This document shows, one piece after another, positions 25,258 through 57,761 of a DNA stretch of 64,000 nt. The first letter of the stretch is position 1; each line of letters starts with the position of its first letter. The translations under genes and the position numbers were made by a program. The notes beneath the pieces are model-generated. The model was not told the origin of the DNA, ran no database searches, and worked only from the letters and a program-made list of their open reading frames with translations. Source of the stretch: Burkholderiales bacterium (GTDB lineage Bacteria; Pseudomonadota; Gammaproteobacteria; Burkholderiales; Eutrophovitaceae); the NCBI GenBank assembly GCA_035528435.1, contig DATKYN010000141.1, positions 7,939-71,938 on the forward strand. The letters are read 5' to 3'.

Positions 25258-25298
25258 TCCGCGGCTAACAGGAGCCTGAGGGAAGCCAAACCAGCCCG

Positions 25299-25314: not shown

Positions 25315-25351
25315 TCCGCAGCGGGGAGTCTCTCGCGCCATTCTTTCCGGT

Positions 25352-27930: not shown

Positions 27931-27933
27931 CCA

Positions 27934-28707: not shown

Positions 28708-28718
28708 GGACACAGCTG

Positions 28719-29570
28719 ATGGCGAAACTCAAAGGACTTGGACGCGGGCTGGATGCGTTGCTCGCTGCCGATGAATCAGATACAGAATCGACTGGCGGCG
28801 AGCTTCGAACGATTCCAACTGCGCGGCTGCGGCCTGGCCGCTATCAGCCGCGCAGTCGAATGGACGAAGCGTCGATAGCGGAACTCGCGGAATCGATCCG
28901 GTCACAGGGGGTTTTACAGCCGATCCTGGTGCGCTCGGTCAACGAGGGCTACGAAATCATCGCTGGTGAACGGCGTTGGCGAGCGGCGCAGTCTGCGGGG
29001 CTCAAGGAAGTGCCGGTAGTCGTGCGTGAAGTTGATGACAACGCGGCACTGGCGATGGCGCTGATAGAGAATATCCAGCGGGAAAACCTAAATCCGCTGG
29101 AAGAAGCGGTCGGCATTCAGCGCCTGATCGACGAGTTCGCGATGACTCATGAAACGGCGGGACAGGCTGTTGGGCGATCGCGTAGCGCTGTTAGCAATCT
29201 GCTGCGCCTGTTGTCATTGCAGCAGCCGGTTCAGGCCTTGTTGATGGACGGCAATATCGATATGGGTCACGCGCGGGCACTGCTGGCGGCACCAGCGTCG
29301 CGGCAGATCGAGCTCGCACAGCGCATCGTCGCTTTGGGGCTGTCGGTACGTGAAACCGAGCAGCTGGTGACGCAAAAAGTGCCTGCCGTGAAACGACCAT
29401 CGAAAGCGGCGAGCAAGGACCGCGACATCGCGGCGCTCGAAGAATCGCTGTCCGAGCGGCTCGGAGCGGCGGTGTCAATTCGGCATCGCAAAAGCGGCAG
29501 CGGAATATTGTCGATTGATTACACCGACCTTGACCAGCTGGACACGATTCTGGCGCGCCTCAGAGCTTGA
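28719..29570 (+). CDS. parB: Chromosome partitioning protein ParB (Spo0J)
   Basis: 283 aa with the ParB box QPILVR....[25 protein letters not shown] and an HTH ([20 protein letters not shown]). Confidence 0.93.
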
Positions 29571-29667: not shown

Positions 29668-30859
<1,192 letters not shown>

Positions 30860-30896
30860 TTTTTTTCACGTTAACGATCACAACTACTGTACTTAG

Positions 30897-31169
<273 letters not shown>

Positions 31170-31203
31170 AAACGAATCCGTTTCATAAGCGCGGGAGGCT
31201 AGC

Positions 31204-31677
31204 GTGAATATCAACGCAACACTATTTGGCCAGGCGCTGTGGTTTGGTGTCTTCATCTGGTTGACGATGAAGTACATCTGGCCGCCGCTACAAAAAGCGA
31301 TGAAGGATCGGGAAAAGCAGATCGCGGAAGGTCTGGCGGCTTCCGAAAAAGGCAAGCAGGAGCTGGAGCAGGCCGCCCAGCGCGTCACAGAGGAATTACA
31401 CAAGGCGCGCGATCAGGCAAGTGAAATTCTGGCTCAGGCGGAAAAGCGTGGCGGCGAACTGGTCGAGGAAGCTAAGGCCAATGCCAGAGCCGAAGGCGAG
31501 CGTATTGTCACGGCCGCAAAAGCGGAGATCGAACAGGAAGTCAATCGTGCCAGAGAGCAGCTCAGGGCGCAGGTCTCGGTTCTTGCTGTGACCGGCGCAG
31601 AGAAAATTCTCAAGCGGGAAATTGACGCACAGGCACACGCCCAGCTGTTGCAGGGCCTGGAAACCGAGCTCAGGTAG
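31204..31677 (+). CDS. atpF: F0F1 ATP synthase subunit b
   Basis: 157 aa with an N-terminal TM segment ([26 protein letters not shown]) and a long charged coiled coil. The start codon is GTG. Confidence 0.9.
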
Positions 31678-31683
31678 AACCCG

Positions 31684-32220
31684 ATGGCCGAACTCGCAAC
31701 TATTGCCAGGCCGTATGCAGAGGCAGCTTTCGCGCTTGCCAAACAACGCGGCGAACTCGACTCTTGGTCCGGGATGCTTGCGCTGCTCGTCAACGTTTAC
31801 CAGGACACGCAGTTCCAGGCGGCGATCGCCGGACCCACGGTCACTGGTGGCGACGTCGAGAACCTGATGCTTACGATCTGTGGCGAAAATATTGACGCGC
31901 AGGCGCGCAATCTTGTCCAGCTGCTCATGCGAAATGGGCGTTTGTCCGTACTTGCGGAAATCCAGACGCTTTATGAACACCTCAAGTCGGATGACGAGGG
32001 CGTGATTGAAGCAAGCATCGCCTCTGCTTACCCGCTGCAAGACCAGCAACTTGAGCAAATCGTCAACATTCTGGCGAAGCGTTTCAACAAGAAAATAAGC
32101 CCGACTGTCGGTGTGGATTCTGAATTGATTGGTGGAATCAAGGTACAGGTCGGCGACAAGGTTTGGGATGCCTCGGTGCGTGGCCGGTTACAGGAAATGG
32201 CCACCACCCTTACGAAATAG
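31684..32220 (+). CDS. atpH: F0F1 ATP synthase subunit delta
   Basis: 178 aa. It starts ATIARPYAEAAFALA, and its position between atpF and atpA fits. Confidence 0.9.
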   Translation: MAELATIARPYAEAAFALAKQRGELDSWSGMLALLVNVYQDTQFQAAIAGPTVTGGDVENLMLTICGENIDAQARNLVQLLMRNGRLSVLAEIQTLYEHLKSDDEGVIEASIASAYPLQDQQLEQIVNILAKRFNKKISPTVGVDSELIGGIKVQVGDKVWDASVRGRLQEMATTLTK

Positions 32221-36663: not shown

Positions 36664-36715
36664 CGCGCATTCCTCAACGCTACATCGGCGCGGCACCTCA
36701 CAGGCGCCGGTTCTG

Positions 36716-36747
36716 AAAAAGAGCAGCAATCACGCTGCTCTTTTTTT
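36716..36747 (+). terminator. Rho-independent terminator of the atp operon
   Basis: AAAAA-GAGCAGC-aatcac-GCTGCTC-TTTTTTT. A second GC hairpin (CGGCGC...GCGCCG) lies just upstream at about 36687-36710. Confidence 0.8.
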
Positions 36748-36856: not shown

Positions 36857-38014
36857 ATGAAACTGAATCGGGCAACACTGATTACCACTTTGCTTGTCTT
36901 TCTCCTAGCCGGCTGTTCATCGGAGAAAGACACCGTCAAGATCGCCTTTATTGGTCCGCTCACCGGAGGCGTATCCGCAAATGGCCTCGGCGGAAGAAAT
37001 TCCGCAGAGCTCGCCGTCAGACTGCACAACGCCGAATCGTCCGGTAATTACACGTACGAACTGGTTGCGCTTGATGACGAGTGCAAGCCGAATATTGGCG
37101 TGCAGGTAGCGACAAAAGTAGCCGCTGACAAGGACGTCATTGCCGGAGTCACTCATTACTGCTCTGCCGTTGCCATGGGAACGGTCGATGTCTATCACAA
37201 GTTCGGTTTGCCGGTCGTCGTATGGGGTGCAGTACTGCCCGACATCACCTACGGCAACGACTACAAGGAAGTGCACCGCGTCAATGGCACGATGATCAAC
37301 CAGAATGAGGTCGCCGCAGATTTCATGCTGGAACAGGGTTACAAGAAATGGGTCATCATTCATGACACCACTGACTATGGAAAAGGTCACAACCGGTACT
37401 TCTCGAAATCTCTTGTTGCCAAGGGTGGGAGAATTCTCGGCACGTTCGGCGTCAGTTCGGACCAGCAGGACTTTAACGCCGAACTCACCAAGGTCAAGGA
37501 ACTCAATCCTGATGTCATATATTTCGGGGGGCTGGCGCCAACCGGTGTGCGATTGCGTTCGCAGATGGAAAAGCTCGGTATCGATGCCGTTTTTCAGGGT
37601 ACATCCGGAATAGTCTCGGATGCCTTCATTGAAGGCCTGGGCCCTTTGTCGGAGGGCGTGATTGCGTTTCGTGAGGGCGCACCGGTGGAGAATCTGCCCG
37701 GTGGTGAAGGTTTTCTGGTGCGGTACGACCAGCAGGGATTCGGCGAACCACCCGAAGCCTATGGCGCTTTTGCGTTCGCTGCAACCCAGCTCATCATCGA
37801 TGCAATCGAGAAAGTCGGTCCCGACCGCGCCGCAGTGAAGCAGGAACTGAATACAACGCGCGACCACGATTCCATTGTTGGACTCATTACGTTCGATGAC
37901 AACGGCCAGAACACGGTTGCCCTGATTACCCGCTATGTCATTCAGGACGGAGACTGGGTCGTCTGGGAACAGAGCGAATACGCTCAAGGCGAGCGCTCGC
38001 TGCAAAAACGCTAA
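36857..38014 (+). CDS. Liv-type (type I periplasmic binding fold) ABC substrate-binding lipoprotein
   Basis: A lipobox signal (LLVFLLAGCSS) is followed by IAFIGPLTGGVSANG, typical of LivJ/K-like Peripla_BP_6 proteins. I chose the start at 36857. Confidence 0.85.
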   Translation: MKLNRATLITTLLVFLLAGCSSEKDTVKIAFIGPLTGGVSANGLGGRNSAELAVRLHNAESSGNYTYELVALDDECKPNIGVQVATKVAADKDVIAGVTHYCSAVAMGTVDVYHKFGLPVVVWGAVLPDITYGNDYKEVHRVNGTMINQNEVAADFMLEQGYKKWVIIHDTTDYGKGHNRYFSKSLVAKGGRILGTFGVSSDQQDFNAELTKVKELNPDVIYFGGLAPTGVRLRSQMEKLGIDAVFQGTSGIVSDAFIEGLGPLSEGVIAFREGAPVENLPGGEGFLVRYDQQGFGEPPEAYGAFAFAATQLIIDAIEKVGPDRAAVKQELNTTRDHDSIVGLITFDDNGQNTVALITRYVIQDGDWVVWEQSEYAQGERSLQKR

Positions 38015-38033
38015 CGACTACCGGCACAAGGTC

Positions 38034-38951
38034 ATGGATCCGGGATTCATCGCGCAATACTTGCTTAACGGCATCGTGCTGGGCGTGATCTACGCCATGG
38101 TTGCAGTCGGATTTACATTGTTCTTTGGTGTGCTCGACGTCATCAAGTTTTCTCATGGTGACGTGGTAATGGCGGGAGCATTCACTGCTCTGGCAACCTA
38201 TGCCGGACTTGAGTATCTCGGTGTCGGTGATGGCGCGATTGCTGCCATTGTAATCACGGTAATGGGAATCGCCGCCATGGCCGTGCTCGGTGCGGTGCTG
38301 GCGAAGCTTCTGATTTTGCCCCTGCGCGAGGCTCCACCACTCAACACCTTGCTGATTACCCTGATGTTCGGGCTCGCCTTGCGCGAGTCGGTGCGACTGT
38401 TCTATCCGAACGGCTCAAACCCGAAACCGTTTCCGCAACTGTTGCCGGACGCAGCAATGACCATCGGTAACCTCGAACTACGTCTCGACAGCGTACTGTT
38501 GATTGTCCTGGGTCTGGGTGCGATCGTCGCGGTGCACCTGATGATTCAGCGCAGTCGTATCGGCCTGGCCATACGCGCTGTCGCGCAGGATCCCGAAACG
38601 GCTCGCCTCATGGGAATCAACTTCGAGCGCGTCGTGTTGATGACGTTTGCCCTCGGCTCCGCGCTGGCCGCGCTGGCGGGGATTACCAATGGCTTGTATT
38701 ACAGCGAAGTGAATTTTGGAATGGGTCTGCTGCTCGGCGTGATCGGTTTCAGTGCTGCCGTTGTGGGTGGCCTGGGAAGTCTCTATGGCGCGATTATCGG
38801 TGGATTTCTATTCGCTGCGTTGCAGACAATAGGTGCAGTCTGGTTTTCCGTGCCTGCCTACAAGGATGTGTTTGCATTTGCATGCATCATCGTCCTGATG
38901 GCCTGGAAGCCCACCGGACTTCTTGCAGACAAGTCAGCGGAACGCGTCTGA
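38034..38951 (+). CDS. Branched-chain-amino-acid-type ABC permease (LivH family)
   Basis: The N-terminus is QYLLNGIVLGVIYAMVAVGFTLFFGV. The protein is multi-TM, and its position follows the binding protein. Confidence 0.85.
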   Translation: MDPGFIAQYLLNGIVLGVIYAMVAVGFTLFFGVLDVIKFSHGDVVMAGAFTALATYAGLEYLGVGDGAIAAIVITVMGIAAMAVLGAVLAKLLILPLREAPPLNTLLITLMFGLALRESVRLFYPNGSNPKPFPQLLPDAAMTIGNLELRLDSVLLIVLGLGAIVAVHLMIQRSRIGLAIRAVAQDPETARLMGINFERVVLMTFALGSALAALAGITNGLYYSEVNFGMGLLLGVIGFSAAVVGGLGSLYGAIIGGFLFAALQTIGAVWFSVPAYKDVFAFACIIVLMAWKPTGLLADKSAERV

Positions 38952-38955
38952 GCCG

Positions 38956-40113
38956 ATGAAATTCAAACGCAAAAGCTTCTGGCCGGTTATTGTTACCGCG
39001 TTATCCGCAGCCTTGTTCGTTCTGCTCTTTTTGTACCTTGAGCACGAATGGGAAATTGCGCTGCTTGCAGTTGGCCTGGTTGCCGTGCTTTTCTTCTCGG
39101 CGCGATTCGGGTTACTGGCGCGCGTCGAAACCGCCGCCTCCGACCATCCGCGTACGACGATCCTGGTCAATGTTGTTTCGGCGTTGCTGGTGATTGTTTT
39201 TCTGCGTGAGGAACATTTTGCTTTGCTCATGCTCGCGACGGTGTTTCTGTATGTCACCATCTGTCTTGGTCTGACCCTGCAATTCGGCTATGCCGGCATT
39301 GTCAATTTCGCCGGCATAGCATTCTTCGGCATCGGCTCCTACACAGCGGCAGTCCTGGCCGTGCACAGTCCGCTACCGCATTTGCTGGTTATCCTCGTTT
39401 CCGGGCTTGTCGCCGGACTCATTGGATCGTTGCTGATTCTCCCCATGCTCAGAACGCGAGGCCATTACGCCGCGCTGGTCACTATTGCGTTCGGCATCCT
39501 GTTTCGAACGTTTCTGGAAGTGAATGATTTGCTGGGTGGTCCACAGGGGCTGAAAGTCCCTGGCATGCAATTGTTCGGCTGGTCGCTAAACGACAATATT
39601 TCGCTCGGTCCACTTGGCATGATTTCCTTTTACGCTTCGTACGCGGTTATCTCTTTGCTGTTGGCGGCCGGTGCTTACACGCTGATCAAACGCCTTGAAC
39701 GTTCCTGGCTTGGCTTGAATCTCGATGCTGTACGAACCGACGAAACTGCGGCTGCGTCCTTTGGAATTGACCTGCCTCGCTGGAAAATATTCGCCTTCAC
39801 AGCTGGAAATTGTCTCGCGGGTGTGGCGGGCGGTGTCTACGCGATGATGTCGGGTTTCATCGCGCCTGCCAGTTTCAACTTCGGTGATTCCCTGCTGCTT
39901 GTGTCCATTGTCCTGCTCGGAGGCAGTGGTAATCCGCTGGGAGTATTGCCGGCAGCGCTACTGGTGGTCGTGTTGCCCGAGAAGCTGCAGATCATCCAGG
40001 AGTACCGGTTGTTGTTGTTTGCGGTACTCGTGATTCTGATTCTGCGTTTTCGGCCCGAGGGGCTGCTGCCTCGAAGAATACGGGAGTATTACGCCGGCTG
40101 GGGACGCTCTTGA
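38956..40113 (+). CDS. Branched-chain-amino-acid-type ABC permease (LivM family)
   Basis: A multi-TM protein with the LivM-like core (LTLQFGYAGIVNFAGIAFFGIGSY). I chose the start at 38956, just after the LivH stop. Confidence 0.85.
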   Translation: MKFKRKSFWPVIVTALSAALFVLLFLYLEHEWEIALLAVGLVAVLFFSARFGLLARVETAASDHPRTTILVNVVSALLVIVFLREEHFALLMLATVFLYVTICLGLTLQFGYAGIVNFAGIAFFGIGSYTAAVLAVHSPLPHLLVILVSGLVAGLIGSLLILPMLRTRGHYAALVTIAFGILFRTFLEVNDLLGGPQGLKVPGMQLFGWSLNDNISLGPLGMISFYASYAVISLLLAAGAYTLIKRLERSWLGLNLDAVRTDETAAASFGIDLPRWKIFAFTAGNCLAGVAGGVYAMMSGFIAPASFNFGDSLLLVSIVLLGGSGNPLGVLPAALLVVVLPEKLQIIQEYRLLLFAVLVILILRFRPEGLLPRRIREYYAGWGRS

Positions 40114-40886
40114 CCAGTCCGGTACTCACGGTTGATGGCCTCACTGTGCGCTTTGGCGGACTCACTGCGCTTGACCGATTACAGTTTGAACTCAGTGCAG
40201 GAGATTTTGTCGGGCTGATCGGGCCCAATGGCTCCGGCAAGACCACTTTCTTCAATGCGCTAACCGGCATTTACACCCCCGCGTCAGGCAATGTAGTGCT
40301 TTCGGGAGAAGACATCACCGGTTTGCCGCCGCAGAAAATCTATGACGTGGGCATTACACGAACATTTCAGCGCCTGCGGCTTGCACCAACGTTGTCGGTA
40401 TTCGATAACCTGATGATCGGTAATCATCGAAATCTTGATCACGGCATTGTCGCCAACCTGTTCAGACGCAAGCGCCTGAAGCTTGAAATCGAAGACAATG
40501 TCGAGAAAAGCCGCTTGTTGCTGGAACAGTTCAGCGCCCCTCTGGCCTCGCGCCTGTTCGATCCGGTGTCGCAGTTGACGATGATTGACCGGCGCCGTGT
40601 CGAAGTCTGCCGTGCCTTGATCAGCGAGCCCGGGATACTTTTGCTTGATGAACCGTCTGCTGGCATGACACACGAAGAAACACGCGAGCTGATGGACGAC
40701 CTGCTGGCATCGCGCGAGCGCATGCCCGGACTCGCCATCGTGCTGATCGAGCATGAGATGGGTGTCATTGAGCGCGTTACAGACCGTTGCGTTGTGCTCA
40801 ATTACGGCGAGAAAATCGCCGAGGGCAGCTATCAGGAAGTGGCTCGTGACAGTGATGTTCGCGCTGCCTACCTCGGAGACGATTGA
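40110..40886 (+). CDS. ABC ATP-binding protein (LivG family)
   Basis: Walker A GPNGSGKTT, then LLLDEPSAGM and the C-terminal AYLG. The start overlaps the permease stop. Confidence 0.9.
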   Translation: MTSPVLTVDGLTVRFGGLTALDRLQFELSAGDFVGLIGPNGSGKTTFFNALTGIYTPASGNVVLSGEDITGLPPQKIYDVGITRTFQRLRLAPTLSVFDNLMIGNHRNLDHGIVANLFRRKRLKLEIEDNVEKSRLLLEQFSAPLASRLFDPVSQLTMIDRRRVEVCRALISEPGILLLDEPSAGMTHEETRELMDDLLASRERMPGLAIVLIEHEMGVIERVTDRCVVLNYGEKIAEGSYQEVARDSDVRAAYLGDD

Positions 40887-40889: not shown

Positions 40890-41603
40890 GTGAGCAACGA
40901 ATTGATGATTCAAAACGTTGTCAGCGGCTACGACGAGGCTGATGTTCTCAGCGGGGTCTCTCTCGAGGTGCCTGAAAAGCAGATAACCTGTTTGCTTGGG
41001 TCTAACGGCGCCGGAAAGACGACACTGATTCGCGCTATTCTGGGCCTGACACCCGCGCGCAGCGGCCGCATCTGTTTCGGGCAAACGGATATAACCCATG
41101 AACCGACCCATCGAATTGTCGGCCTCGGGGTGACCTGTATTCCCGAAGGACGACGGGTGTTCCCGCGCATGAGCGTGACGGAGAATCTCAGGGTCGGTGC
41201 CTATACGGGTACCGACCGGCAAGCAATCGAAAGACGGTTCGATGAAGTGTTCGCTATTTTCCCGCGGTTGCGCGAGCGTGCCGATCAGCTTGCCGGAACC
41301 ATGTCAGGCGGCGAGCAGGCGATGTTGTCAATTGGCAGAGGATTGATGAGCGGGCCCAAACTGTTGATTGTCGATGAGCCATCGCTGGGCTTGTCGCCAT
41401 TGTTCGTCAAGGAAAATTTCAAGGTGATCCAGCGTATTAACGAACTCGGTGTTACGGTTTTGCTGGTCGAACAGAATGTGCGGCAAACGCTGGCGATTGC
41501 GCATCGAGGCTATGTATTGTCCCAGGGCCGCATTGTGGCGCAGGGCGATGCTGCGCAGTTGCGAGACAACGAGGAAGTCCGGGCCGCATACTTCGGCAGC
41601 TGA
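40890..41603 (+). CDS. ABC ATP-binding protein (LivF family)
   Basis: Walker A GSNGAGKTT, the signature MSGGEQAML, then LIVDEPSLGL and the C-terminal AYFG. The start codon is GTG. Confidence 0.9.
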   Translation: MSNELMIQNVVSGYDEADVLSGVSLEVPEKQITCLLGSNGAGKTTLIRAILGLTPARSGRICFGQTDITHEPTHRIVGLGVTCIPEGRRVFPRMSVTENLRVGAYTGTDRQAIERRFDEVFAIFPRLRERADQLAGTMSGGEQAMLSIGRGLMSGPKLLIVDEPSLGLSPLFVKENFKVIQRINELGVTVLLVEQNVRQTLAIAHRGYVLSQGRIVAQGDAAQLRDNEEVRAAYFGS

Positions 41604-41670: not shown

Positions 41671-42801
41671 ATGGCCAAGCCAGTCAATGCAGTGGAGTTG
41701 ACCAAACAGATCGTGCGGATGAACACGATTAACCCGCCAGGAGACGAAGAGGCATGTGCCCGTGTTCTGGGATCGTTGCTGGAGTCTGCCGGCTGCACAG
41801 TCGCGTACCACAAGCTTGGTGACAAGCGCGCGAGCCTGGTTGCCCGTATCGGAGGCAGCAGTGACAAGGCGCCTCTGTGTCTGACCGGGCATATCGACAC
41901 GGTACCGTTAGGCGCAGCCCCCTGGAGCAAGGATCCCTTTGCTGGCGAAACCGCTGATGGCCGGTTGTATGGTCGCGGTACCAGTGACATGAAGTGTGGC
42001 GTAGCGGCTTTCGTAGCGGCAACAGTCTCACTCGCGGCGAAGCTCGAGCGTTCACCCGGTCTCGAGCTGGTCATTACAGCCGGCGAGGAAGTCGGTTGCG
42101 AGGGCGCGTTCGATCTGGTTCGTCGTCAAGGTGCGCTCGGCCGCGCAGGAGCAGTGCTGGTAGGTGAGCCGACCTCGAATTTCCCGTACGTTGGACACAA
42201 GGGCGCGTTCTGGCTGTGCGCAAAAACGCATGGCGTCACCGCCCACGGCTCGATGCCGGAACGCGGCGACAATGCTGTATACAAGGCGGCCCGCGCCATC
42301 ACGGCGCTGGAGAATTTCCGGTTCGACAATCCCCCGCACGAGATGATGGGTCAGGCAACGCTTAATGTTGGTACCGTGCGTGGCGGGCTCAATATCAACT
42401 CGGTTCCGGATGAAGCCGCAATTGAAATCGATATTCGCAGCGTGCCAACATCGCGCCACGATGCCATCCGGAAAGCACTGCAGGAACGATTGGGCAGCGA
42501 GGTTGATCTCGAACCGATTATCGATCTCGAAAGCGTCTACAGTGAACCCGATCACGTTTGGATTCAGAAGCTGTTCGACATTACCCAAACCTATCTGGGC
42601 GCCCGCCCGGAACCAAAGGTGGCGACGTATTTCACTGACGCTGCGGCACTGACACCCGCATACGGCAATCCGCCGACGGTGATCCTCGGTCCCGGAGAAC
42701 CGCAAATGGCGCACCAGACCGACGAATACTGCGTTATCGAACGCGTCGCATCTTCGGTCAGTCTGTATGAACAGGTCATCGCCGACTGGTGTGGCGTCTG
42801 A
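41671..42801 (+). CDS. M20-family metallo-amidohydrolase (ArgE/DapE/ACY1 type)
   Basis: Metal and catalytic motifs are present: LTGHIDTVP, GRGTSDMKCGVAA, AGEEVGCEGA and VTAHGSMPERGDNA. An AAGGGGAG Shine-Dalgarno sequence precedes the ATG at 41671. The longer ORF from 41449 overlaps livF and is unlikely. Confidence 0.8.
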   Translation: MAKPVNAVELTKQIVRMNTINPPGDEEACARVLGSLLESAGCTVAYHKLGDKRASLVARIGGSSDKAPLCLTGHIDTVPLGAAPWSKDPFAGETADGRLYGRGTSDMKCGVAAFVAATVSLAAKLERSPGLELVITAGEEVGCEGAFDLVRRQGALGRAGAVLVGEPTSNFPYVGHKGAFWLCAKTHGVTAHGSMPERGDNAVYKAARAITALENFRFDNPPHEMMGQATLNVGTVRGGLNINSVPDEAAIEIDIRSVPTSRHDAIRKALQERLGSEVDLEPIIDLESVYSEPDHVWIQKLFDITQTYLGARPEPKVATYFTDAAALTPAYGNPPTVILGPGEPQMAHQTDEYCVIERVASSVSLYEQVIADWCGV

Positions 42802-43999
42802 CGCGTCGTGTGAGTCGTATTCTGCGGTGAAGACAGAAGCCGGATATCAAGCGTTGTTTGATCCGGGCGCGCGACTGGTCGAAACGGCGGGCGCGCTAAC
42901 GCTGGTCGAAGGTAAGTGTGATGGGCAGGTGTTGCGCGCCGCATTGACAGATCGAGCAGTTGCGGGAGGATCGTTTGGCGTCGAAGAGAGCGAGGCGCTT
43001 ACGAAGCATCTGCTTCGCAGCCACGACGATGGTACGCCCTTTGTTCTGATACTTGATTCGGCCGGCGCGCGGCTGGACGCCGGACTGGCGGGGTTGGGCG
43101 CTTTCCGCCGTCTCTATCGCGCTGCTCTTGATGTTCGCCTTGCCGGTGTTCCGATGGCCGCGCTGCTGGAACGCGACTGTTTCGGCGGGGCCAGTATGCT
43201 GGCAATGCTATGCCCGGTACGAGGCGCAATCCAAAGCGCACGAATCGGCATGTCCGGACCCGGCATCGTTGCAGCACTTTCAGGCGGGCAGGACCTTGAT
43301 GCATACGACCGTGATGCGGTTCGGGCGCTCTTTGGCGCACCGTCGCGAGCGCGGGCCGGTGCGATAGACTTCCTCTTCGATTCGAACACGCCACGACACG
43401 AAGCGCTGGCCCAGTTGCTTGGGCTTGCCATGAGCAAAAAAGCCGGGCTTGGTGCTCAGCACCAGATACTCGAAAAACGGTTGCGTGAAGCGGGCATCGA
43501 AACCGGTACGCCGGTGCTGGATAACGTGGCCGAATTGTTCCGTCGTGGAATTCCGGTCGGTGCTGCCGAACTCTGGCAACTCTCCGATGCAGTTCTTTCA
43601 TGCCAGCCCGGCGAGATCCTCGAGCTGGAAATTGACTGTCCCGGTCAGGCCGCATCGTCGCGCGACGAGTCATTGGTACTGTCCGAATATGTAGCGCACC
43701 TGGCTCTTTGTCTGCGTGAGCGTTATCACTGCGGTGTCGAAATTGTCATGCGTATCGAAGGAGAATCGGCCGGAGGGATCTATGTAGCGTTGGCGGCCGG
43801 TGCACAACGGGTCGAGGCAACGCCGATGGCGAATGTGCGGGTGTTGCCGGCTCGGGCAATAGAAGTCGTTTTGGGAAAGTTCCTGCCCGACGAATCACTC
43901 GCCGATGCCCTTGTGGCAGGCATTGTCGATTTTATCGTGCCGATTCGCGGATGCAGCGCTGCCGTGCCGGCAGTTCGACTCGGGAGCAGCAATGAATAA
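42767..43999 (+). CDS. Fused MdcD-like/MdcE-like carboxyltransferase (biotin-independent malonate decarboxylase beta+gamma-type domains in one compact polypeptide)
   Basis: The N-terminal half (GGSFGVEESEALTKHLL..FVLILDSAGARLDAGLAGLGAF..CFGGASMLAMLC..ARIGMSGPGIV) follows the MdcD/acyl-CoA carboxyltransferase pattern. The C-terminal half (IDCPGQAASSRDESLVLSEYVAHLA...GESAGGIYVALAAGAQRV) follows the MdcE pattern. The start is uncertain (ATG 42767, GTG 42791 or GTG 42827). The assignment comes from recalled motifs only. Confidence 0.6.
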   Translation: MNRSSPTGVASDASCESYSAVKTEAGYQALFDPGARLVETAGALTLVEGKCDGQVLRAALTDRAVAGGSFGVEESEALTKHLLRSHDDGTPFVLILDSAGARLDAGLAGLGAFRRLYRAALDVRLAGVPMAALLERDCFGGASMLAMLCPVRGAIQSARIGMSGPGIVAALSGGQDLDAYDRDAVRALFGAPSRARAGAIDFLFDSNTPRHEALAQLLGLAMSKKAGLGAQHQILEKRLREAGIETGTPVLDNVAELFRRGIPVGAAELWQLSDAVLSCQPGEILELEIDCPGQAASSRDESLVLSEYVAHLALCLRERYHCGVEIVMRIEGESAGGIYVALAAGAQRVEATPMANVRVLPARAIEVVLGKFLPDESLADALVAGIVDFIVPIRGCSAAVPAVRLGSSNE

Positions 44000-45494
44000 C
44001 AGCAATATGTATCTTGAAATCTCCGGCGTGGTTGAAGCCTATCGGGACCGAATCGCGTTGAGAGCCGGTAACGGCAACGAGTTAAGTTACGGCGAACTGG
44101 ATGCCGAGGTCGCCCGATATGCCAATGCCTTATGCGAGACTGGTCTGCGACGCGGAGACCGGGTAGCCGTTCAGCTTCGCAAGAGCATTCCTTCACTGTT
44201 CGTCTATCTCGCGTGCCTGCGCGCCGGGCTGGTTTATCTTCCCCTGAATACCGCTTACCGTAGTGCCGAACTGGACTATTTTCTGCGCGATGCCGAACCC
44301 GGTTTGATACTGGTCGAAGCAAAGCAACGCACGGCAATGGAAGATCTGGCCAAAGCAACGATTGGTGCAACGGTGATGACTGAGGAAGAGGTGACCGGGC
44401 TTGCGCAGCGAGCGGCGGGCTCGCACGAACAATTTCCCACCGCGACGTCGGGGCCCGATGACCTTGCGGTGATTATTTACACGTCCGGCACGACAGGACG
44501 CAGCAAGGGCGCAATGGTTACTCATGACAACCTCGTTTCCAATGCGCGTGCACTGACGCAGCAATGGAAGTTCACCGGTGACGACGTACTACTGCATGCT
44601 CTGCCAATTTTTCATGTTCATGGCCTGTTCGTCGCCAATCATTGCGCGCTGACAACTGGCGCGTGCTTGCTGTGGCATGACCGGTTCGACGCAAGCGATG
44701 TTGCGCGTGATATCAAGCGTTCCACCGTGCTTATGGGAGTTCCGACGTACTACGTGCGTTTACTCGGGGAGCCGGATTTTTCGCGAGAGGCCTGCTGCAG
44801 CATGCGGTTGTTCGTATCCGGATCGGCCCCCTTGCTGGCGGAAACGCATTATCAGTTCGAACAGCGTACTGGACATCGAATCCTTGAACGCTATGGTATG
44901 TCCGAAGCCGGCATGATCACGTCCAATCCGTATCACGGAGAGCGCCGCGCGGGGACCGTTGGTTTTCCGCTGCCGGGCGTCGATGTCCGAGTAGCCGACG
45001 AAGCGAACAAGCCCGTACCAAACGGTGAAAAGGGCGCAATACAGATCAAGGGCCGCAATGTCTTCAGTGGTTACTGGCGTATGCCTGAGAAAACGCGGGA
45101 AGAATTTACGCCCGATGGCTGGTTTCGCACCGGCGACATAGGCTTGTTCGATGCTGACGGTTATCTGTCGATTGTTGGCCGGGAGAAAGATCTCATCATT
45201 ACTGGCGGCTATAACGTCTATCCGAAAGAGATCGAACAGGTTATCGATGAATTACCCGGGGTAATTGAATCTGCGGTGATCGGCGTGCCGGACGCTGACT
45301 TCGGCGAGGCGGTGACGGCAGTCGTCGTTGCGACGGCGGGTGCGCAGATCGATCAGGCAACAACCATTAGTGCCCTGAAAACAAAGCTTGCAGGATATAA
45401 GGTGCCGAAGCACGTTCATATCGTCGAAGCGTTGCCGCGCAACGCGATGGGTAAGGTACAGAAAAAGCTGCTGCGCGAACGTTTCGGTCAGTAA
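43992..45494 (+). CDS. matB: Malonyl-CoA synthetase-like AMP-forming ligase (MatB family)
   Basis: Long colinear matches to rhizobial MatB as I recall it: GDRVAVQ..LACLRAGLVYLPLNTAY..AELDYF..DAEP, IIYTSGTTGRSKGAMVTH, LPIFHVHGLFVA, LMGVPTYYVRLL, SGSAPLLAETH, ILERYGM, AGTVGFPLPGV, GYWRMPEKT, GGYNVYPKEIE and NAMGKVQKKLLRE. The ATG at 43992 overlaps the upstream stop by 8 nt. Confidence 0.8.
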   Translation: MNNSNMYLEISGVVEAYRDRIALRAGNGNELSYGELDAEVARYANALCETGLRRGDRVAVQLRKSIPSLFVYLACLRAGLVYLPLNTAYRSAELDYFLRDAEPGLILVEAKQRTAMEDLAKATIGATVMTEEEVTGLAQRAAGSHEQFPTATSGPDDLAVIIYTSGTTGRSKGAMVTHDNLVSNARALTQQWKFTGDDVLLHALPIFHVHGLFVANHCALTTGACLLWHDRFDASDVARDIKRSTVLMGVPTYYVRLLGEPDFSREACCSMRLFVSGSAPLLAETHYQFEQRTGHRILERYGMSEAGMITSNPYHGERRAGTVGFPLPGVDVRVADEANKPVPNGEKGAIQIKGRNVFSGYWRMPEKTREEFTPDGWFRTGDIGLFDADGYLSIVGREKDLIITGGYNVYPKEIEQVIDELPGVIESAVIGVPDADFGEAVTAVVVATAGAQIDQATTISALKTKLAGYKVPKHVHIVEALPRNAMGKVQKKLLRERFGQ

Positions 45495-46869: not shown

Positions 46870-47105
46870 TGTGTCGCTCCAACTGATCTTGCCGGCTGGA
46901 TGAATAGGGTGCCCCCCGCGAATGCCGTCAGACCGATATCCTGAACCGTATGGTTCAAGAGCGGCCACCTTCCGAACGTCTTAGGTACGTCCATGTCGGA
47001 CGCGCACAACAACGTTACTTAAGTCGGCGACCTGACGTAATCACATTGGTTCAGAGAAACAACAGCCTGGACGCACACTGCAGGGGACATGGAATCACAG
47101 GACAA
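46870..47105 (-). ncRNA. ssrS: 6S RNA (ssrS); ends approximate by about 30 nt
   Basis: It lies immediately downstream of zapA, as in E. coli. The minus strand contains 6S-like blocks GUCCCCUGC (47087-47080), pairing with GCGGGGGGC (46919-46911), and CUUGAACCAUACGGUUCAGG (compare E. coli CCUUGAACCAAGGGUUCAAGG). No covariance model was run. Confidence 0.6.
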
Positions 47106-47619: not shown

Positions 47620-47747
47620 GGCATCACTATATTTAAAAGTTCTGAAAAGTCAACTGCTAACGGTATATATTGAATGTTGTTTAGCATCTTTGGTGCCAGC
47701 CGCCCATGATTAATCGGCAGTCTGTTTTGTAATGACCGTGTACACTG

Positions 47748-48010
47748 ATCGGGTTCCAAGGTGCCCTGGATTATTTGTTTGTCAGGGTTAAACGGGAAAT
47801 CAGGTGAAATTGGGCTGGATTGGCGGTTTTTTCGCCGCAGATCCGGACGAATCAGTCCTGTGCTGCCCCCGCAACGGTAAGCGAGTGTGGGCGCGTCATT
47901 CTCGGATCTCTTCAATGGATCCGAAGCCACTGTGACAAGTAAGCGTGTTAGCGCTTACTTATTATGGGAAGGCGACGTGTCAAGACTCGCGAGCCCGGAT
48001 ACCGGCCGTG
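47748..48010 (+). promoter_or_regulatory. Cobalamin (B12) riboswitch
   Basis: Conserved blocks are present: GGUGCC..., GGUUAAACGGGAAAUCAGGUGAAAU, CUGUGCUGCCCCCGCAACGGUAA, the B12 box GAAGCCACUG, then GGGAAGGC and AGCCCGGAUACCGGCC. It lies upstream of a TonB-dependent receptor. Confidence 0.78.
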
Positions 48011-48138
48011 TGAACAGCGACGGAGTTTCCGCGAGGGGCGGTAAACCGGCTGGTTCAATGATGTTTGGCCGCCTACTGCAGAAATCTCCTTGTTTTTTTG
48101 TCACGTACACGGCGGGTGTGCGCATCCGGGAGAGCATC

Positions 48139-52134: not shown

Positions 52135-52439
52135 ACCCGGGCCCACGGGTATTGCCTGTCGCTGATTCGAAGGTTCGGGCTCTGGCGCGATAATGGGGCG
52201 CGTCATACACGCCGGCCAATCACTCGCCTGCCCTACCGGCTGCGTTTTTGCCAGGCCGGACGCGTCTGAGAGCAATTCTTCGACTGGCATCTGTCAGCTC
52301 TTTCGCGCCGGGTTTGTTTCACTTATCTTGATCCGGCTCAGTGCATGAACACCCGCAAGGGTATTTAATACCCGGCAGGCCTTGTAACCTTATCGATAAA
52401 GTACCGATAGCAATCAAGTTGATCGCAAGAGGAGAGTGC

Positions 52440-53738
52440 GTGGTGAAGAAAACCCGGAAGAATATTTTCGAACTGTACGAACAGGATCCGCATCAGGCAG
52501 ACCGAGTGGTGTTCGGACGCGAAACGTATCGTGATCGGCGCGGATTCCTTAAGGGCGCCGGACTTGCGGGAATGGCGGCGCTCCTTGGTGGCGCCATTCC
52601 GTTTCATCGCAATATGCCAGGTGGGCTGATACCGGTAGCACTGGCGGAACAGGCGTTTCAAATTGAAAACAAGGACGGACTAATCATTCTCAATGATCGT
52701 CCGGTAAACGCCGAGTGTCCGCCCCATCTGCTCGACGATGAAGTAACGCCCAACGTACGCCATTTTGTCCGTAACAATGGTGTACCGCCCACCAGTGTCG
52801 ATGCTGCAAGCTGGAAGCTGCGCATAGACGGTGAAGTAGCCTCTGCCATGACGCTTGGCATTGATGACCTGAAAGAAAGATTTGAAGTCGTGAAGCTGCG
52901 ACTGCAGATCGAATGCGGTGGCAACGGGCGTGCCTATTTCGACCCGAAGGCCAAGGGCAATCAGTGGACGCTTGGTGCCGTCGGGTGTTCCGAGTGGACC
53001 GGCGTGCGGCTTGCCGATGTTTTGAAGGCCGCTGGTCTGAACAGCAACGCGGTCTATACCGCGCACTACGGCGCCGACACCCACCTCTCCGGTAATCCCG
53101 ACAAGGAGCCGATCTCGCGAGGCGTGCCGATCAAAAAGGCGCTCAGTCCGTACAATCTGATCGCGTTCGAGCAAAATGGGGGGCCGTTGCATCCGATGAA
53201 TGGCGCACCGTTACGGCTGGTGGTTCCGGGATGGCCGGGATCGTGTTCGCAAAAATGGCTCACCCGGATTCAGATTCGTGACAAGGTGCACGACGGTGCG
53301 AAGATGACCGGCACCTCCTACCGGGTGCCCGCCTATCCGGTTGCGCCCGGGGAAAAAGTGCCGAAGAAGGATTTCCGCATCATCGAATCGATGCCGGTCA
53401 AATCCCTCATTACCTGGCCTGAGAGTGGCATTGAATTGTCAGACGGACGTGAGCTCGTGGTTCGCGGCCATGCCTGGGCCGGGGACAATGCCGTAAGGTC
53501 GGTCGAATTATCGATCGATTTCGGCGCAACCTGGATTCGGGCTGACCTGCGCACCCCGGTAAACCCGTTTGCCTGGCAGCGTTTCAGCGCCCGGGTACGC
53601 TTCCCGGATAAAGGTTATTACGAAGTGTGGGCGCGCGCTACGGATGATACCGGCGCGCAGCAACCGTTCGCGATCGCCTGGAATCCGAAAGGTTACCTTA
53701 ACAACTCGATGCACCGCATCGCGGTCAGGGTTGCGTGA
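52440..53738 (+). CDS. sorA: Sulfite dehydrogenase/sulfite-oxidase-family molybdopterin subunit (SorA-like), Tat-exported
   Basis: The Tat motif is DRRGFLKGAGLAGMAALLGG. SUOX-family motifs include VRHFVRNNG, ECGGNGR and the dimerisation domain. The GTG start lies after a GGAGAG Shine-Dalgarno sequence. Confidence 0.78.
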   Translation: MVKKTRKNIFELYEQDPHQADRVVFGRETYRDRRGFLKGAGLAGMAALLGGAIPFHRNMPGGLIPVALAEQAFQIENKDGLIILNDRPVNAECPPHLLDDEVTPNVRHFVRNNGVPPTSVDAASWKLRIDGEVASAMTLGIDDLKERFEVVKLRLQIECGGNGRAYFDPKAKGNQWTLGAVGCSEWTGVRLADVLKAAGLNSNAVYTAHYGADTHLSGNPDKEPISRGVPIKKALSPYNLIAFEQNGGPLHPMNGAPLRLVVPGWPGSCSQKWLTRIQIRDKVHDGAKMTGTSYRVPAYPVAPGEKVPKKDFRIIESMPVKSLITWPESGIELSDGRELVVRGHAWAGDNAVRSVELSIDFGATWIRADLRTPVNPFAWQRFSARVRFPDKGYYEVWARATDDTGAQQPFAIAWNPKGYLNNSMHRIAVRVA

Positions 53739-54448
53739 GCGCGCGGGTCACTCTGTCGTTATGCCTTCTGGTTTTGAGTGTGTGGCTTGTGGCCGCCGCC
53801 CGTGCCGGACCGGTAGTCGAAGAAATATCGACAAGGCTGGCATCTGCCGATCCCGGCATAGGTGAGAAGGTTTTTGCGCAGTGCGCCGTATGTCATGTCG
53901 CCAGGCCCGGAGCAAAGTTCACGATCGGCCCCAATCTGTGGAATCTTCTCGGACGGTCGGTTGCGGCTGAACCCGGATTCGACTATTCGGAGTCGCTCAG
54001 GGGAGCATCCGGGCAATGGGATTTCGAGCGCCTCAACATTTATCTTTATGATCCCAAACTGGTGGCGCCCGAGGGGCGCATGCCATTCCCCGGAATCAAG
54101 GCGACAATGGAGCGCGCGCATCTCATCGCGTACCTGCGAACATTGAGCGACGAACCACATGCGTTACCGGACATGGGACCGGCGGCTGTGGGCGTGAGCG
54201 TCGCGGTCCCGGATGACGACCCTGAAAAATGGCAGGGTTTGCCGCCCGGTCCCGGTCGGGAGGATGTCTATTACCGCTGTGCAGCCTGTCACTCGCTGAT
54301 GATCGTCAAGCAGCAAGGCCTTGACCGGGCAGCATGGGAGGAATCCCTTGACTGGATGGTGGAGGAACAGGGAATGGCACCGATCGAGGACGCCGCGACC
54401 CGTAATCGCGTGCTCGATTATCTGGCGGATAAATTCGGTCGCGATTAG
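53735..54448 (+). CDS. Dihaem cytochrome c (SorB-like electron acceptor)
   Basis: A signal peptide and two CxxCH motifs (CAVCH, CAACH) are present. The N-terminal domain is cytochrome c2-like (GPNLWNLLGR..., MPFPGIK). The GTGA start overlaps the sorA stop. Confidence 0.72.
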   Translation: MSARVTLSLCLLVLSVWLVAAARAGPVVEEISTRLASADPGIGEKVFAQCAVCHVARPGAKFTIGPNLWNLLGRSVAAEPGFDYSESLRGASGQWDFERLNIYLYDPKLVAPEGRMPFPGIKATMERAHLIAYLRTLSDEPHALPDMGPAAVGVSVAVPDDDPEKWQGLPPGPGREDVYYRCAACHSLMIVKQQGLDRAAWEESLDWMVEEQGMAPIEDAATRNRVLDYLADKFGRD

Positions 54449-54568
54449 CGCCTGGCCACACCGGTAACGGCGCAATCGGCACAAAGCCACTACCGGACTT
54501 GACAGATGTGCATCGCGCTGGCGATGCTGCCCCCTGCCGACAAAAGCAGAGCACTGCGGGAGGGGAAA

Positions 54569-55639
54569 ATGAAGCACAAGAAAACTGGTATCACGGCGAT
54601 CTGTCTGGCCCTGATTGGCTGTGCGGTGCTGATGCCGGCGCACGCCGCGAAATACACCATGGCTATCAGCCATCTGGCGCCCGAGGACCTCAGTAATAAC
54701 GAGATGCATCCGGCCATGAAGCATTTCGAGTCAATACTCGAAGCGGCTACCGGCGGCGACATCGATGTGCAGGTCTTCGGTAACGGCCAACTTGGCTCCG
54801 AAGTGGAAACAGCGAAACAGGCCCAGGCCGGGCGCCTCGTCCAGGCTTCCCTTATTTCTTCCGGTGCCATGTCGTCTTTCTTTCCGGAATATCAGATCGT
54901 TACCACGCCGTTTCTGTTTCCCGACTATCGCATTGCGCGAGCCTATTTCGATGGCGAGTGGCACGCCAACTTCATGCGCGGCACCTTGAAATCGGGGCTG
55001 CGTTACCTCGGCACCCTCGATGATGGCGGCGGCTTCGTCGCCTTTACCAACAACAAACGGTTGATCAGGAATGTCGTCGACCTGAAGGGGTTAAAGATTC
55101 GCGTCGAGGAAAATCCGGCGCATGTTGCAACGATGAAAGCACTTGGCGCATCGGCCACGCCGTTGCCGTGGGGTGAGGTGGTCACTGCGCTCAGCACCGG
55201 TCTTGTGGACGGACAATTCAATGCCCCCGGTGTCAGCCTTGCGTTCAAGTTGTGGGAAGTGAACGACTACACCACGTGGAGCGGGCATGTTTACAACTCG
55301 ATCTCCTGGGTAGTCAGTGACAAGTGGTTTCGCAAGTTGCCAGAACAATATCAACTCGCGGTCTTGCAGGCCGCACGCGAGGCAGTACAGGTTTCGCATG
55401 GGATCGCCGTGCTTGCCGCAATCAAGGGCTGGGAAGCTTCCTGCAAGAACTTCAAAAAATGCCACATCCTGACGCAGAGTGAAAAGCAAGCCATGGCGGC
55501 AGTCGCCCGTCCGGCCTGGAAACAATGGATCACTGCCGACTTCGGCATCGATGAACAACTTGTTGACGACCTGTGGAAAGAAGTCACACGTCTCGAAGGC
55601 GAGGTCAATCAACGCGAGATTCGTCGCTATGGACGTTGA
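54569..55639 (+). CDS. TRAP transporter substrate-binding protein (DctP family)
   Basis: A signal peptide (ICLALIGCAVLMPAHA) is followed by DctP-like motifs (DLKGLKIRV, NPAHVATMKALGASATPLPWGEV). The start at 54569 follows a GGGAGGGG Shine-Dalgarno sequence. Confidence 0.85.
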   Translation: MKHKKTGITAICLALIGCAVLMPAHAAKYTMAISHLAPEDLSNNEMHPAMKHFESILEAATGGDIDVQVFGNGQLGSEVETAKQAQAGRLVQASLISSGAMSSFFPEYQIVTTPFLFPDYRIARAYFDGEWHANFMRGTLKSGLRYLGTLDDGGGFVAFTNNKRLIRNVVDLKGLKIRVEENPAHVATMKALGASATPLPWGEVVTALSTGLVDGQFNAPGVSLAFKLWEVNDYTTWSGHVYNSISWVVSDKWFRKLPEQYQLAVLQAAREAVQVSHGIAVLAAIKGWEASCKNFKKCHILTQSEKQAMAAVARPAWKQWITADFGIDEQLVDDLWKEVTRLEGEVNQREIRRYGR

Positions 55640-55687
55640 CTGTCGAACGACAGGTGTCGAGTTAAATCGCAGTAAAGTCCAACCTGA

Positions 55688-55745
55688 TTTGTTCAAGCCT
55701 GGCTTGTTCAAACATGGCTTGTTCAAACATGGTTGATCAACACGG
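55688..55745 (+). repeat. 15-bp tandem repeat (about 3.9 units) at the dctP-dctQ junction
   Basis: The units are TTTGTTCAAGCCTGG, CTTGTTCAAACATGG, CTTGTTCAAACATGG and a partial TTGATCAACACGG. Units 2 and 3 are identical. Confidence 0.85.
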
Positions 55746-56274
55746 ACTGTTTGGTTCTGCGCTCAGAAATATCAGCGCCAGGCTGAATACCATTGCGTTA
55801 CTGGTTTGTGTCGCCTGCGTGCTGTCGATGCTGTCGATTTCCTTCATCGGATTCTTCTACATGCTTGTCACAGGCGAAGCCCTTAGCTGGACATATTCGC
55901 TTGCGCGCCTGTTCATTCCCTGGATCGGCATGCTCAGCATCACAGTGGCTTTTCATGGTGGCGAACATGTTGCCATGAATCTGCTGTCGCGCCTGTTGCC
56001 GGCGCAGCTGGCCGTCATTCTGCGCTACGCGAGCCTTGCCGCGGTTGCCGTGTTTGCCGTCTTGCTACTGTGGTTCGGGTGGCAGTTCTTTTCCACCACG
56101 ACGCAGTACTACATGGTTTCCGATCAAATACAGATTCATGGGCGCTGGGTAGCTGCGTGCGTCCCTGTCAGTGGCGCAATCATGCTGGTGCACCTGGTTA
56201 ATGGCACAGCCATCCTGGAGTCGCAGGATGTCGACTCGCAAGGCTTTGCCACCCACGAAAGCGGGCCGGGTTGA
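55714..56274 (+). CDS. TRAP transporter small permease (DctQ family)
   Basis: A membrane protein of about 180 aa with 4 TM segments between DctP and DctM. The start is either 55714 or 55729; both ATGs lie inside the tandem repeat. Confidence 0.75.
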   Translation: MACSNMVDQHGLFGSALRNISARLNTIALLVCVACVLSMLSISFIGFFYMLVTGEALSWTYSLARLFIPWIGMLSITVAFHGGEHVAMNLLSRLLPAQLAVILRYASLAAVAVFAVLLLWFGWQFFSTTTQYYMVSDQIQIHGRWVAACVPVSGAIMLVHLVNGTAILESQDVDSQGFATHESGPG

Positions 56275-57551: not shown

Positions 57552-57761
57552 ATCAGCAACGGCTTGATGGTGAACGGCGGAACGGTCCGGGTCCGCGCAC
57601 GATTTGAAACGATGCGTATCTGAATCAAGGGGAGTTCAGCGACCAAGCTGTTGGTATTGTCAGCAGCGCCAACAGATGAAGCACCGGCACCATGTCAGCG
57701 TGCGGTATATTTCCGGAGCAGTGGATGTCGGCGGACCAAAGTAACCCAACAGCAGCCAGAA

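Follow-up and report, generated by a model that had tools for sequence, protein, structure and literature searches.

The locus described here raises the question of what becomes of an acyl-coenzyme A (CoA) thioester made by the malonyl-CoA synthetase MatB when the gene beside matB encodes a short protein that resembles two subunits of malonate decarboxylase. The locus lies in a stretch of 64,000 nucleotides (the window) from a Burkholderiales bacterium of the family Eutrophovitaceae (GenBank assembly GCA_035528435.1, contig DATKYN010000141.1, positions 7,939 to 71,938). The protein in question (the target) combines in one polypeptide a region related to MdcD, the beta subunit of the biotin-independent malonate decarboxylase, and a region related to MdcE, the gamma subunit. 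A first-pass annotation of the DNA proposed that it acts on free malonyl-CoA and replaces MatA, the malonyl-CoA decarboxylase of the MCD family. Judged from sequence, the target family appears to be a rare, compact and MatB-coupled offshoot of the Mdc beta/gamma decarboxylase. We give a probability of about 0.6 to the reading that the target is a compact descendant of the MdcD/MdcE module which works without an acyl carrier protein (ACP) or MdcA and decarboxylates the free CoA thioester supplied by MatB.

Profiles of the malonate decarboxylase subunits recognize both halves of the target. Pfam Carboxyl_trans (PF01039) matches residues 47-179 (E 3.3e-8, 33.1 bits against a cutoff of 22.3), and Pfam MdcE (PF06833) matches residues 262-365 (E 3.2e-13, 50.3 bits against a cutoff of 32.7) over only positions 4-110 of the 196 in that profile. 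The top NCBIfam models are MdcD (PRK07189, 70.3 bits; TIGR03133, 63.8 bits) and MdcE (TIGR03134, 49.9 bits), with lower scores for AccD (35.9 bits) and MmdA (26.8 bits), and a Pfam scan of the protein gave no match to the MCD domain. Assignment by profile to AccA/AccD or to MmdA, which the first-pass annotation had regarded as damaging to its proposal, did not occur, the Mdc models scoring higher. The presence of MdcD and MdcE motifs in one chain of about 400 amino acids (aa) is therefore borne out, with the qualification that the scores for the Mdc models, while best, all fall far below the equivalog cutoffs. The target shares its domain order and its crotonase/carboxyltransferase fold with MdcD-MdcE of Pseudomonas aeruginosa (5VIP/5VJ1) and Acinetobacter calcoaceticus. 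It is also shorter than the two subunits together, as had been claimed, with one chain of ~390-410 aa in the family (410 aa here) compared with about 280-287 residues for MdcD and about 268-284 for MdcE (287 and 284 in the crystallized P. aeruginosa chains).

The AlphaFold2 model of the target is confident, with a predicted local distance difference test (pLDDT) of 89.1 and a predicted template modelling score (pTM) of 0.88. Residues ~20-205 form an N-domain, which a helical linker (~210-257) connects to a shortened C-domain of ~130 residues (~260-390). In Foldseek, which compares single chains, the model aligns end to end with the two-domain carboxyltransferases AccD6, PCC beta and 12S (best E 4.8e-18). 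Against full PccB-type chains the TM-score is ~0.43 with a root-mean-square deviation of ~17 A, so that each domain has its match although the two are placed differently relative to each other than in a PccB-type chain. In a profile search of the PDB, the N-domain gives near-equal matches to 12S transcarboxylase (1on3, E 1.8e-25) and MdcD (5vip_B, E 6.4e-25).

The target belongs to a family that we consider rare, because an exhaustive HMMER scan of 1.84 billion proteins yielded only 148 representatives at E<=1e-30 (684 at E<=1e-10), nearly all of them from uncultured Betaproteobacteria. A word-indexed search gave 301 relatives; those listed are mostly ~380-430 aa with both domains, the shorter ones are fragment-like, and the only names they carry are "hypothetical", "ACC beta subunit" or "malonate decarboxylase gamma". 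Among species-representative genomes, 97 stretches encode a relative, the best at only 71% identity. Eighty of these were kept as loci, and all 80 are betaproteobacterial, comprising metagenome-assembled and single-amplified genomes (Burkholderiales, Usitatibacter, Hydrogenophilales) plus strain UKL13-2; flanks were compared in 85 loci overall. In Betaproteobacteria bacterium UKL13-2 (CP012157.1; locus L061, 9947-11170) the reading frame of the homologue is interrupted by a TAA at codon 189, where the N-domain ends; this reflects either a pseudogene or sequencing error, or else two naturally separate subunits.

Beyond the family, the nearest HMMER matches include bona fide MdcD proteins above the PRK07189 cutoff (P0239, P0252, P0255) and full-size MdcD-MdcE fusions of 530-590 aa (P0196, P0204, P0210), together with intermediates, and because of these matches we place the origin of the family in the Mdc beta/gamma lineage and not with AccA/AccD or PccB. 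The full-size fusions are single chains with the domain order of the target, but the MdcD equivalog cutoff (228 bits), which the target does not reach, is exceeded by their beta half (360-392 bits), little is missing from their gamma half (178-222 bits), and they are 120-180 aa longer. The earlier statement that beta and gamma are separate proteins in characterized malonate decarboxylases calls for one correction, since full-size fusions exist in databases; what is particular to this family is the compact size together with the linkage to MatB.

That linkage is very strong. A tree of 74 full-length members separates into two clades, one containing the window (43 places including the window itself) and a sister clade (37 loci) at 29-36% identity, for which flanks of up to 10 kb were compared. 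Locus coordinates were anchored by tblastn; longest-ORF calling gave spurious giant open reading frames (ORFs) in high-GC loci. A matB gene lies directly downstream of the target relative in all 41 loci of the window's clade with enough sequence, overlapping it or within 100 nt in 38, and in 29 of 31 loci of the sister clade. The two proteins are moreover joined in two 50%-identity representatives that are single MdcDE-like::MatB polypeptides of 939 and 899 aa, with MatB halves scoring 714 and 711 bits against a cutoff of 558:

L083, 10001-12820: the 939-aa fusion, directly preceded by an alpha/beta hydrolase gene
L081, 10001-12700: the 899-aa fusion, Herbaspirillum autotrophicum (GCA_001189915.1, LFLS01000056.1)

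The fusion occurs in two independent lineages. Frameshift artefacts of gene calling were considered as an explanation and are ruled out by several distinct full-length members and a RefSeq protein: the 939-aa cluster contains four distinct members from separate assemblies, and the 899-aa cluster includes WP_083439307.1 of the cultured H. autotrophicum, which RefSeq names only 'AMP-binding protein'. The H. autotrophicum locus comprises a divergent GntR/FCD regulator, the fusion and a DctPQM tripartite ATP-independent periplasmic (TRAP) transporter, and no MCD/MatA is present in the 15 kb seen around the fusion. We take this order to be the layout of the rhizobial mat locus with the MdcDE-like domain in the place of matA, and the logic of the two systems is similar (GntR regulator, synthetase, dicarboxylate transporter). 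Because MatB is the one invariant partner, by adjacency, overlap or fusion, the target almost certainly handles an acyl-CoA made by MatB. The earlier proposal of direct action on a free MatB-made acyl-CoA is thereby strongly supported, and no ACP or MdcA partner lies near the pair.

In the window the target gene is the seventh of eight co-directional, tightly packed genes that follow a terminator-like hairpin and run from a substrate-binding protein (SBP) gene of an ATP-binding cassette (ABC) transporter to matB, where a convergent TauE gene closes the unit. The features are:

36715-36746, plus strand: terminator-like hairpin of 13 pairs with a T run, directly after atpC, parting the atp operon from the following unit
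36857-38014, plus strand: periplasmic substrate-binding lipoprotein (SBP) of the Liv/HAAT type (Pfam Peripla_BP_6, E 2.8e-45)
37935-38951, plus strand: ABC permease, LivH/UrtB-like (Pfam BPD_transp_2, E 1.8e-43)
38923-40113, plus strand: ABC permease, LivM-like (Pfam BPD_transp_2, E 8.3e-35; NCBIfam LivM, 172 bits)
40110-40886, plus strand: ABC ATPase, LivG-like (Pfam/NCBIfam)
40890-41603, plus strand: ABC ATPase, LivF-like (Pfam/NCBIfam)
41671-42801, plus strand: M20 metallohydrolase of the ArgE/DapE deacylase type (TIGR01910, 237 bits against a cutoff of 217.6)
42767-43999, plus strand: target, compact single-chain MdcD/MdcE-like protein (Pfam, NCBIfam, family alignments, AlphaFold2/Foldseek)
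43992-45494, plus strand: MatB, malonyl-CoA (methylmalonyl-CoA) synthetase (NCBIfam PRK07514, 763 bits against a cutoff of 558)

MatB of the window matches the R. palustris MatB structure 4fuq at E 1.8e-169, and the best PDB match of the M20 protein is the DapE-like 7uoi (E 6e-45). The 410-aa target ORF runs from ATG to TAA, and its stop codon (43997-43999) and the ATG of matB at 43992, which has a GGGAG Shine-Dalgarno sequence upstream, overlap by 8 nt, as first annotated. The reported translational overlap with the M20 gene amounts to 35 nt if the target begins at ATG 42767 and is less secure, since the start codon is unsettled. In-frame GTG codons up to 20 codons later (42791 and 42827) are alternatives, no clear Shine-Dalgarno sequence precedes any of the three, public gene calls in the 90% cluster of the target differ (410, 402 and 381 aa), and residues 1-18 are unconserved in the family alignment and disordered in the AlphaFold2 model; the start is uncertain for these reasons. 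For the SBP, the most likely start is ATG 36857, which gives a signal peptide with an LAGC lipobox, and not TTG 36746 of the longest ORF, which falls inside the terminator hairpin. For the M20 protein, ATG 41671 with its GGGGAG Shine-Dalgarno sequence is the most likely start, and not GTG 41449 of the longest ORF, which would overlap the ATPase gene. A promoter scan performed no better than on shuffled sequence. In a sediment metatranscriptome, contigs match the SBP, M20, target and matB genes at at least 90% identity (~96% on the target), and these transcripts come from this organism or a close strain; the region is also present in soil, sediment, estuary and salt-marsh metagenomes. In ~25 related loci the ABC-M20-MdcDE-MatB unit likewise comes after the atp operon, in conserved synteny.

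Genes for a carrier or for a classical holoenzyme were sought around the target. Pfam searches of essentially all large ORFs in the window found no MdcA, MdcC, CitG/MdcB, MdcG, MdcH, biotin carboxyl carrier protein (BCCP) or MCD/MatA, a tblastn search with an MCD query gave no match in the window, and a motif scan found no biotinylation motif in its six-frame translation or in any locus ORF. The earlier remark that no ACP, acyl-transferase or prosthetic-group genes lie nearby is thus confirmed over 64 kb. MdcA, MdcC and BCCP were likewise not seen in the flanks of the 85 loci, where the carrier screen consisted of a biotinylation-motif scan of ORFs and Pfam searches of ~16 representative neighbour proteins. 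Unlike MdcD-MdcE, which belong to a setting of mdcA, mdcC, mdcB, mdcG and mdcH, the target is paired or fused with MatB.

Residues of the target were mapped on those of the P. aeruginosa enzyme from the structure paper (PMC5534430) and HMMER alignments. The two positions whose backbone NH groups form the oxyanion hole in MdcD, V121 and G162, correspond to A101 (motif LDSAGARL) and G141 (motif CFGG), which are conserved at >=90% in both clades; L123, which recognizes adenine, corresponds to L103, and each of the MdcD counterparts falls within a motif that both clades conserve. R180, which contacts the CoA pyrophosphate, corresponds to R159 (motif SARIG), which is invariant in a 35-sequence alignment and in the sister clade is the 50-80% majority residue only. 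In the C-domain, MdcE Gln100, a proposed malonyl contact, corresponds to Q294 in an MdcE alignment with E of 0.007-0.1; members of the window's clade have Q at this position in 90% of cases, those of the sister clade H in 100%, a fixed difference that may mark a functional split between the clades. The mapping to MdcE is tentative; in its favour, residues of three types agree when the numbering is shifted by one constant offset. The conserved C-domain of the target ends ~96 residues past Q294, at about MdcE residue 196-200, and has no counterpart to the C-terminal extension (residues 241-266) by which MdcE docks MdcA. Deletion of this extension breaks the malonate decarboxylase holoenzyme.

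On a malonyl-type thioester, the reaction open to a crotonase fold of the carboxyltransferase type whose acyl-CoA oxyanion hole is intact is loss or transfer of the carboxyl group. Between these, a decarboxylase independent of ACP and biotin fits best because no carrier is found nearby, the MdcA-docking tail is absent and the nearest profiles are those of biotin-independent Mdc subunits. Comparable chemistry is known from E. coli YgfG/ScpB, a crotonase-fold methylmalonyl-CoA decarboxylase that is biotin-independent, acts on a 2-carboxyacyl-CoA and uses a backbone oxyanion hole; it differs from the target in that it has a single classical crotonase domain and forms a hexamer, lies outside the carboxyltransferase subtype and lacks a link to MatB. 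Direct action on a free CoA thioester is also within the reach of the Mdc module, as MdcD-MdcE isolated from A. calcoaceticus and from P. aeruginosa shows decarboxylation of free malonyl-CoA in vitro (PMC5534430).

On the proposed mechanism, the Liv-type ABC importer would bring in an amide-linked malonyl conjugate, from which the M20 enzyme would release malonate, the conjugate being for example an N-malonyl amino compound. MatB would activate the malonate to malonyl-CoA, and the target would decarboxylate this to acetyl-CoA and CO2, or to the matching acyl-CoA if the substrate bears a 2-substituent, as the last chemical step encoded by the transcription unit. Within the target, the N-domain would bind the acyl-CoA with R159 holding the CoA pyrophosphate, the backbone NH groups of A101 and G141 would form the oxyanion hole that stabilizes the enolate, and the C-domain with Q294 and an invariant GG(I/V)YVA motif would close the active site. 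We infer all of these steps by homology, and with them the substrate, the reaction, the biotin independence and the role of the M20 enzyme; what the data show directly is the architecture, the family, its conserved residues, the gene order, the joining to MatB and the transcripts in the sediment metatranscriptome.

The nature of the imported compound and the hydrolase step are offered tentatively. An M20 gene lies directly upstream of the target relative in 41 of 42 loci of the window's clade and in none of the sister clade. The SBP gene is found upstream in most loci of the window's clade, where the importer is usually a Liv-type ABC system and in four loci a divergent Dpp/Opp-type system (L012, L023, L028, L038); both types carry amino-acid or peptide-like solutes, and sister-clade loci have no importer. 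DapE-type deacylases act on a dicarboxylic acyl group. A hydrolase thus stands directly upstream in independent lineages, and the alpha/beta hydrolase before the 939-aa fusion echoes the M20 hydrolase of the window's clade. In a literature search, no publication came up that dealt with the family, with an M20 enzyme acting as N-malonyl deacylase or with the use of malonate by H. autotrophicum. The more ambitious proposal, in which a MatA-less malonate pathway has this family as its physiological malonyl-CoA decarboxylase and the eight-gene operon is an undescribed route by which N-malonylated amino compounds serve as carbon sources (Liv- or Dpp-type import, M20 "demalonylase", MatB and decarboxylase), falls well short of even odds in our estimate.

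Several observations weigh against decarboxylation of free malonyl-CoA by the target, and we consider them together. The scores of the target lie far below all three equivalog cutoffs (70.3 against 228 bits for PRK07189, 63.8 against 278 for TIGR03133 and 49.9 against 237 for TIGR03134). The C-domain is barely recognizable against MdcE in the PDB: MdcE is matched only at E 0.0068 by the full-length family profile and at E 0.099 by a profile built on the C-domain only, whose top match is an AccD chain (E 0.008). In this weak alignment, two further MdcE residues are not kept: Tyr102 corresponds to A296 and Ser142 to G336. The latter sits in the GG(I/V)YVA motif, which aligns with the GGxY of the biotin-dependent 12S carboxyltransferase where MdcE has MSGAFLA, and the GGxY position is presumably the biotin oxyanion-hole site of PccB/12S-type enzymes. 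As to activity, the rate of MdcD-MdcE on malonyl-CoA is 14-fold below that of human MCD (PMC5534430), and the literature search found no biochemical or genetic data on any family member.

A further objection comes from the sister clade, in which a canonical MCD/MatA (PF05292+PF17408, E 7e-94) stands beside the pair in 17 of 37 loci. In 11 of the 17 the same-strand order is MdcDE-like, MatB, MCD (L041, L042, L045-L048, L053, L054, L059, L062, L066); in others MCD lies upstream on the opposite strand (L056, L058, L063, L064, L067), and it is also beside the pair at L060. The arrangement of MdcDE-like, MatB and MCD genes is stable across a whole high-GC subclade. A DUF1178 gene often follows MCD in these loci. 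MatA (PF05292, a GNAT-type fold, known from rhizobial matABC) would occupy the same position in the pathway after MatB but has no sequence or fold relationship to the target. The coexistence argues that a target-type protein and MatA are not plain equivalents there; the two would be redundant if turning malonyl-CoA into acetyl-CoA were all that either did, and the substrate or role of the family may therefore differ from that of MatA. A substrate substituted at carbon 2, carboxyl transfer to a biotin carrier and real redundancy may each account for it. The proposed non-orthologous replacement of MatA is accordingly contradicted as a general rule of the family; in the window's clade, where no MCD/MatA was found within 10 kb at any of the 43 places, and in H. 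autotrophicum, such replacement is plausible.

The alternative that survives best, although we consider it unlikely, is that the target decarboxylates a 2-substituted malonyl-CoA (methylmalonyl-, ethylmalonyl- or hydroxymalonyl-CoA) to the corresponding acyl-CoA, which would make it a complement to MatA and not a replacement. It would accommodate the 17 sister-clade loci with MCD, and MatB enzymes also activate substituted malonates; the closest solved MatB, R. palustris 4fuq, is described as a synthetase of methylmalonyl-CoA too. For the N-domain, 12S transcarboxylase, which binds methylmalonyl-CoA, is as good a match as MdcD, and of the three proposed malonyl contacts of MdcE two are changed and the third differs as Q or H between the clades. 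However, the Gln100 counterpart is kept in the window's clade, MatB scores well above the cutoff of the malonyl-CoA synthase model, the H. autotrophicum locus looks like a plain malonate locus, and no sign of a source of substituted malonate was seen in the neighbourhoods.

It is quite improbable that the target is a minimal biotin-dependent carboxyltransferase, which would pass the carboxyl group of malonyl-CoA to a carrier encoded elsewhere and so conserve it where a decarboxylase would release it. This explanation would make sense of the GGxY-like motif, with its presumed role at the biotin site, and of a role not redundant with MCD in the sister clade. It is also in keeping with the structural comparison, where all full-length matches are biotin-dependent carboxyltransferases (12S, PccB, AccD6 and MmdA/GcdA show Foldseek E-values of ~1e-17 together with N-domain motifs and a C-domain GGxY-type motif like those of the target). 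The target is nevertheless 100-120 aa shorter than these two-domain chains of ~500 aa, with a C-domain of only ~130 residues, a different arrangement of domains and lower profile scores for their models, while the profiles that score best are those of the Mdc subunits, which do not depend on biotin. A partner carrying biotin was not found among the ORFs of the window or the loci: neither Pfam annotation of the window nor, in the 85 loci, the motif screen and the Pfam searches of ~16 proteins revealed a BCCP, a biotin carboxylase or a membrane decarboxylase subunit. A backbone oxyanion hole, moreover, is also useful for plain decarboxylation.

A biosynthetic function is more improbable still. 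Decarboxylation of malonyl-CoA yields an enolate that a second substrate could trap with formation of a carbon-carbon bond, as crotonase-fold enzymes including CarB do, or the target could catalyse another crotonase-type reaction outside catabolism. There would then be no redundancy with MCD, and the upstream hydrolase of two lineages could supply the co-substrate. Against this, no partner other than MatB is conserved throughout, the genes at the H. autotrophicum locus are limited to those for a regulator, the fusion and a transporter, and conserved neighbours with a biosynthetic role were not found.

Least credible of all is that the target supplies the beta and gamma functions of a classical malonate decarboxylase of the ACP-dependent kind, with MdcA, MdcC and prosthetic-group genes elsewhere in the genome: Pfam MdcE scores above its gathering threshold and the best NCBIfam models are MdcD and MdcE, but scores are 3- to 5-fold under the equivalog cutoffs, mdcA and mdcC are absent from the 64 kb here and from the 85 flanks, the MdcE extension that holds MdcA in the holoenzyme is missing, and the strict coupling or fusion is to MatB, which makes a CoA and not an ACP thioester.

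The window as a whole represents the region around the replication origin of a betaproteobacterial chromosome. At 16133-29570 it carries gyrB-dnaN-dnaA on the minus strand followed by yidC, mnmE, mnmG, rsmG, parA and parB on the plus strand, and the cumulative GC skew has its minimum near 18-20 kb. Where plus-strand atpE, atpF and atpH are expected, two minus-strand ORFs of 194 and 220 aa (30819-32058) were called; the 220-aa ORF has no Pfam match, and both are probably spurious antisense ORFs. Downstream of the target unit, a 6S RNA (Rfam RF00013, 47.3 bits against a gathering score of 46.4) lies at 46909-47089 on the minus strand between an EVE-domain gene and a cobalamin riboswitch (RF00174, 78.6 bits; 47742-48024, plus strand). 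The riboswitch precedes genes for a TonB-dependent receptor and an ABC_membrane/ABC_tran protein, and since the longest-ORF start of the receptor, GTG 47887, falls inside it, the true start must be further downstream. At 52341-54448 on the plus strand, a sulfite-oxidase-type molybdopterin oxidoreductase (Oxidored_molyb and Mo-co_dimer) is followed by a cytochrome c gene, a pair resembling SorAB. A DctPQM TRAP transporter, a DUF2817 protein and a protein with a phospholipase domain like Tle1 of the type VI secretion system (T6SS) follow at 54506-60013 on the plus strand, and no other T6SS genes were found in the window.

If the target does decarboxylate free malonyl-CoA, the family would be a third bacterial solution for converting malonate to acetyl-CoA, after the GNAT-fold MCD and the ACP-dependent Mdc holoenzyme, in which one chain of ~390 aa suffices without an ACP prosthetic group or MCD/MatA. 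It would also give a physiological meaning to the malonyl-CoA side activity of MdcD-MdcE, a question left open by the 2017 structural paper, and would provide a compact part for control of malonyl-CoA levels in engineered strains. Because H. autotrophicum is in culture and encodes WP_083439307.1, the function is directly testable, and the coexistence with MatA in the sister clade may reveal a division of substrates between two decarboxylases. For the uncultured soil and sediment Betaproteobacteria that carry these genes, the operon hints at unstudied carbon sources, namely amide- or ester-linked malonyl conjugates cleaved by M20 or alpha/beta hydrolases.

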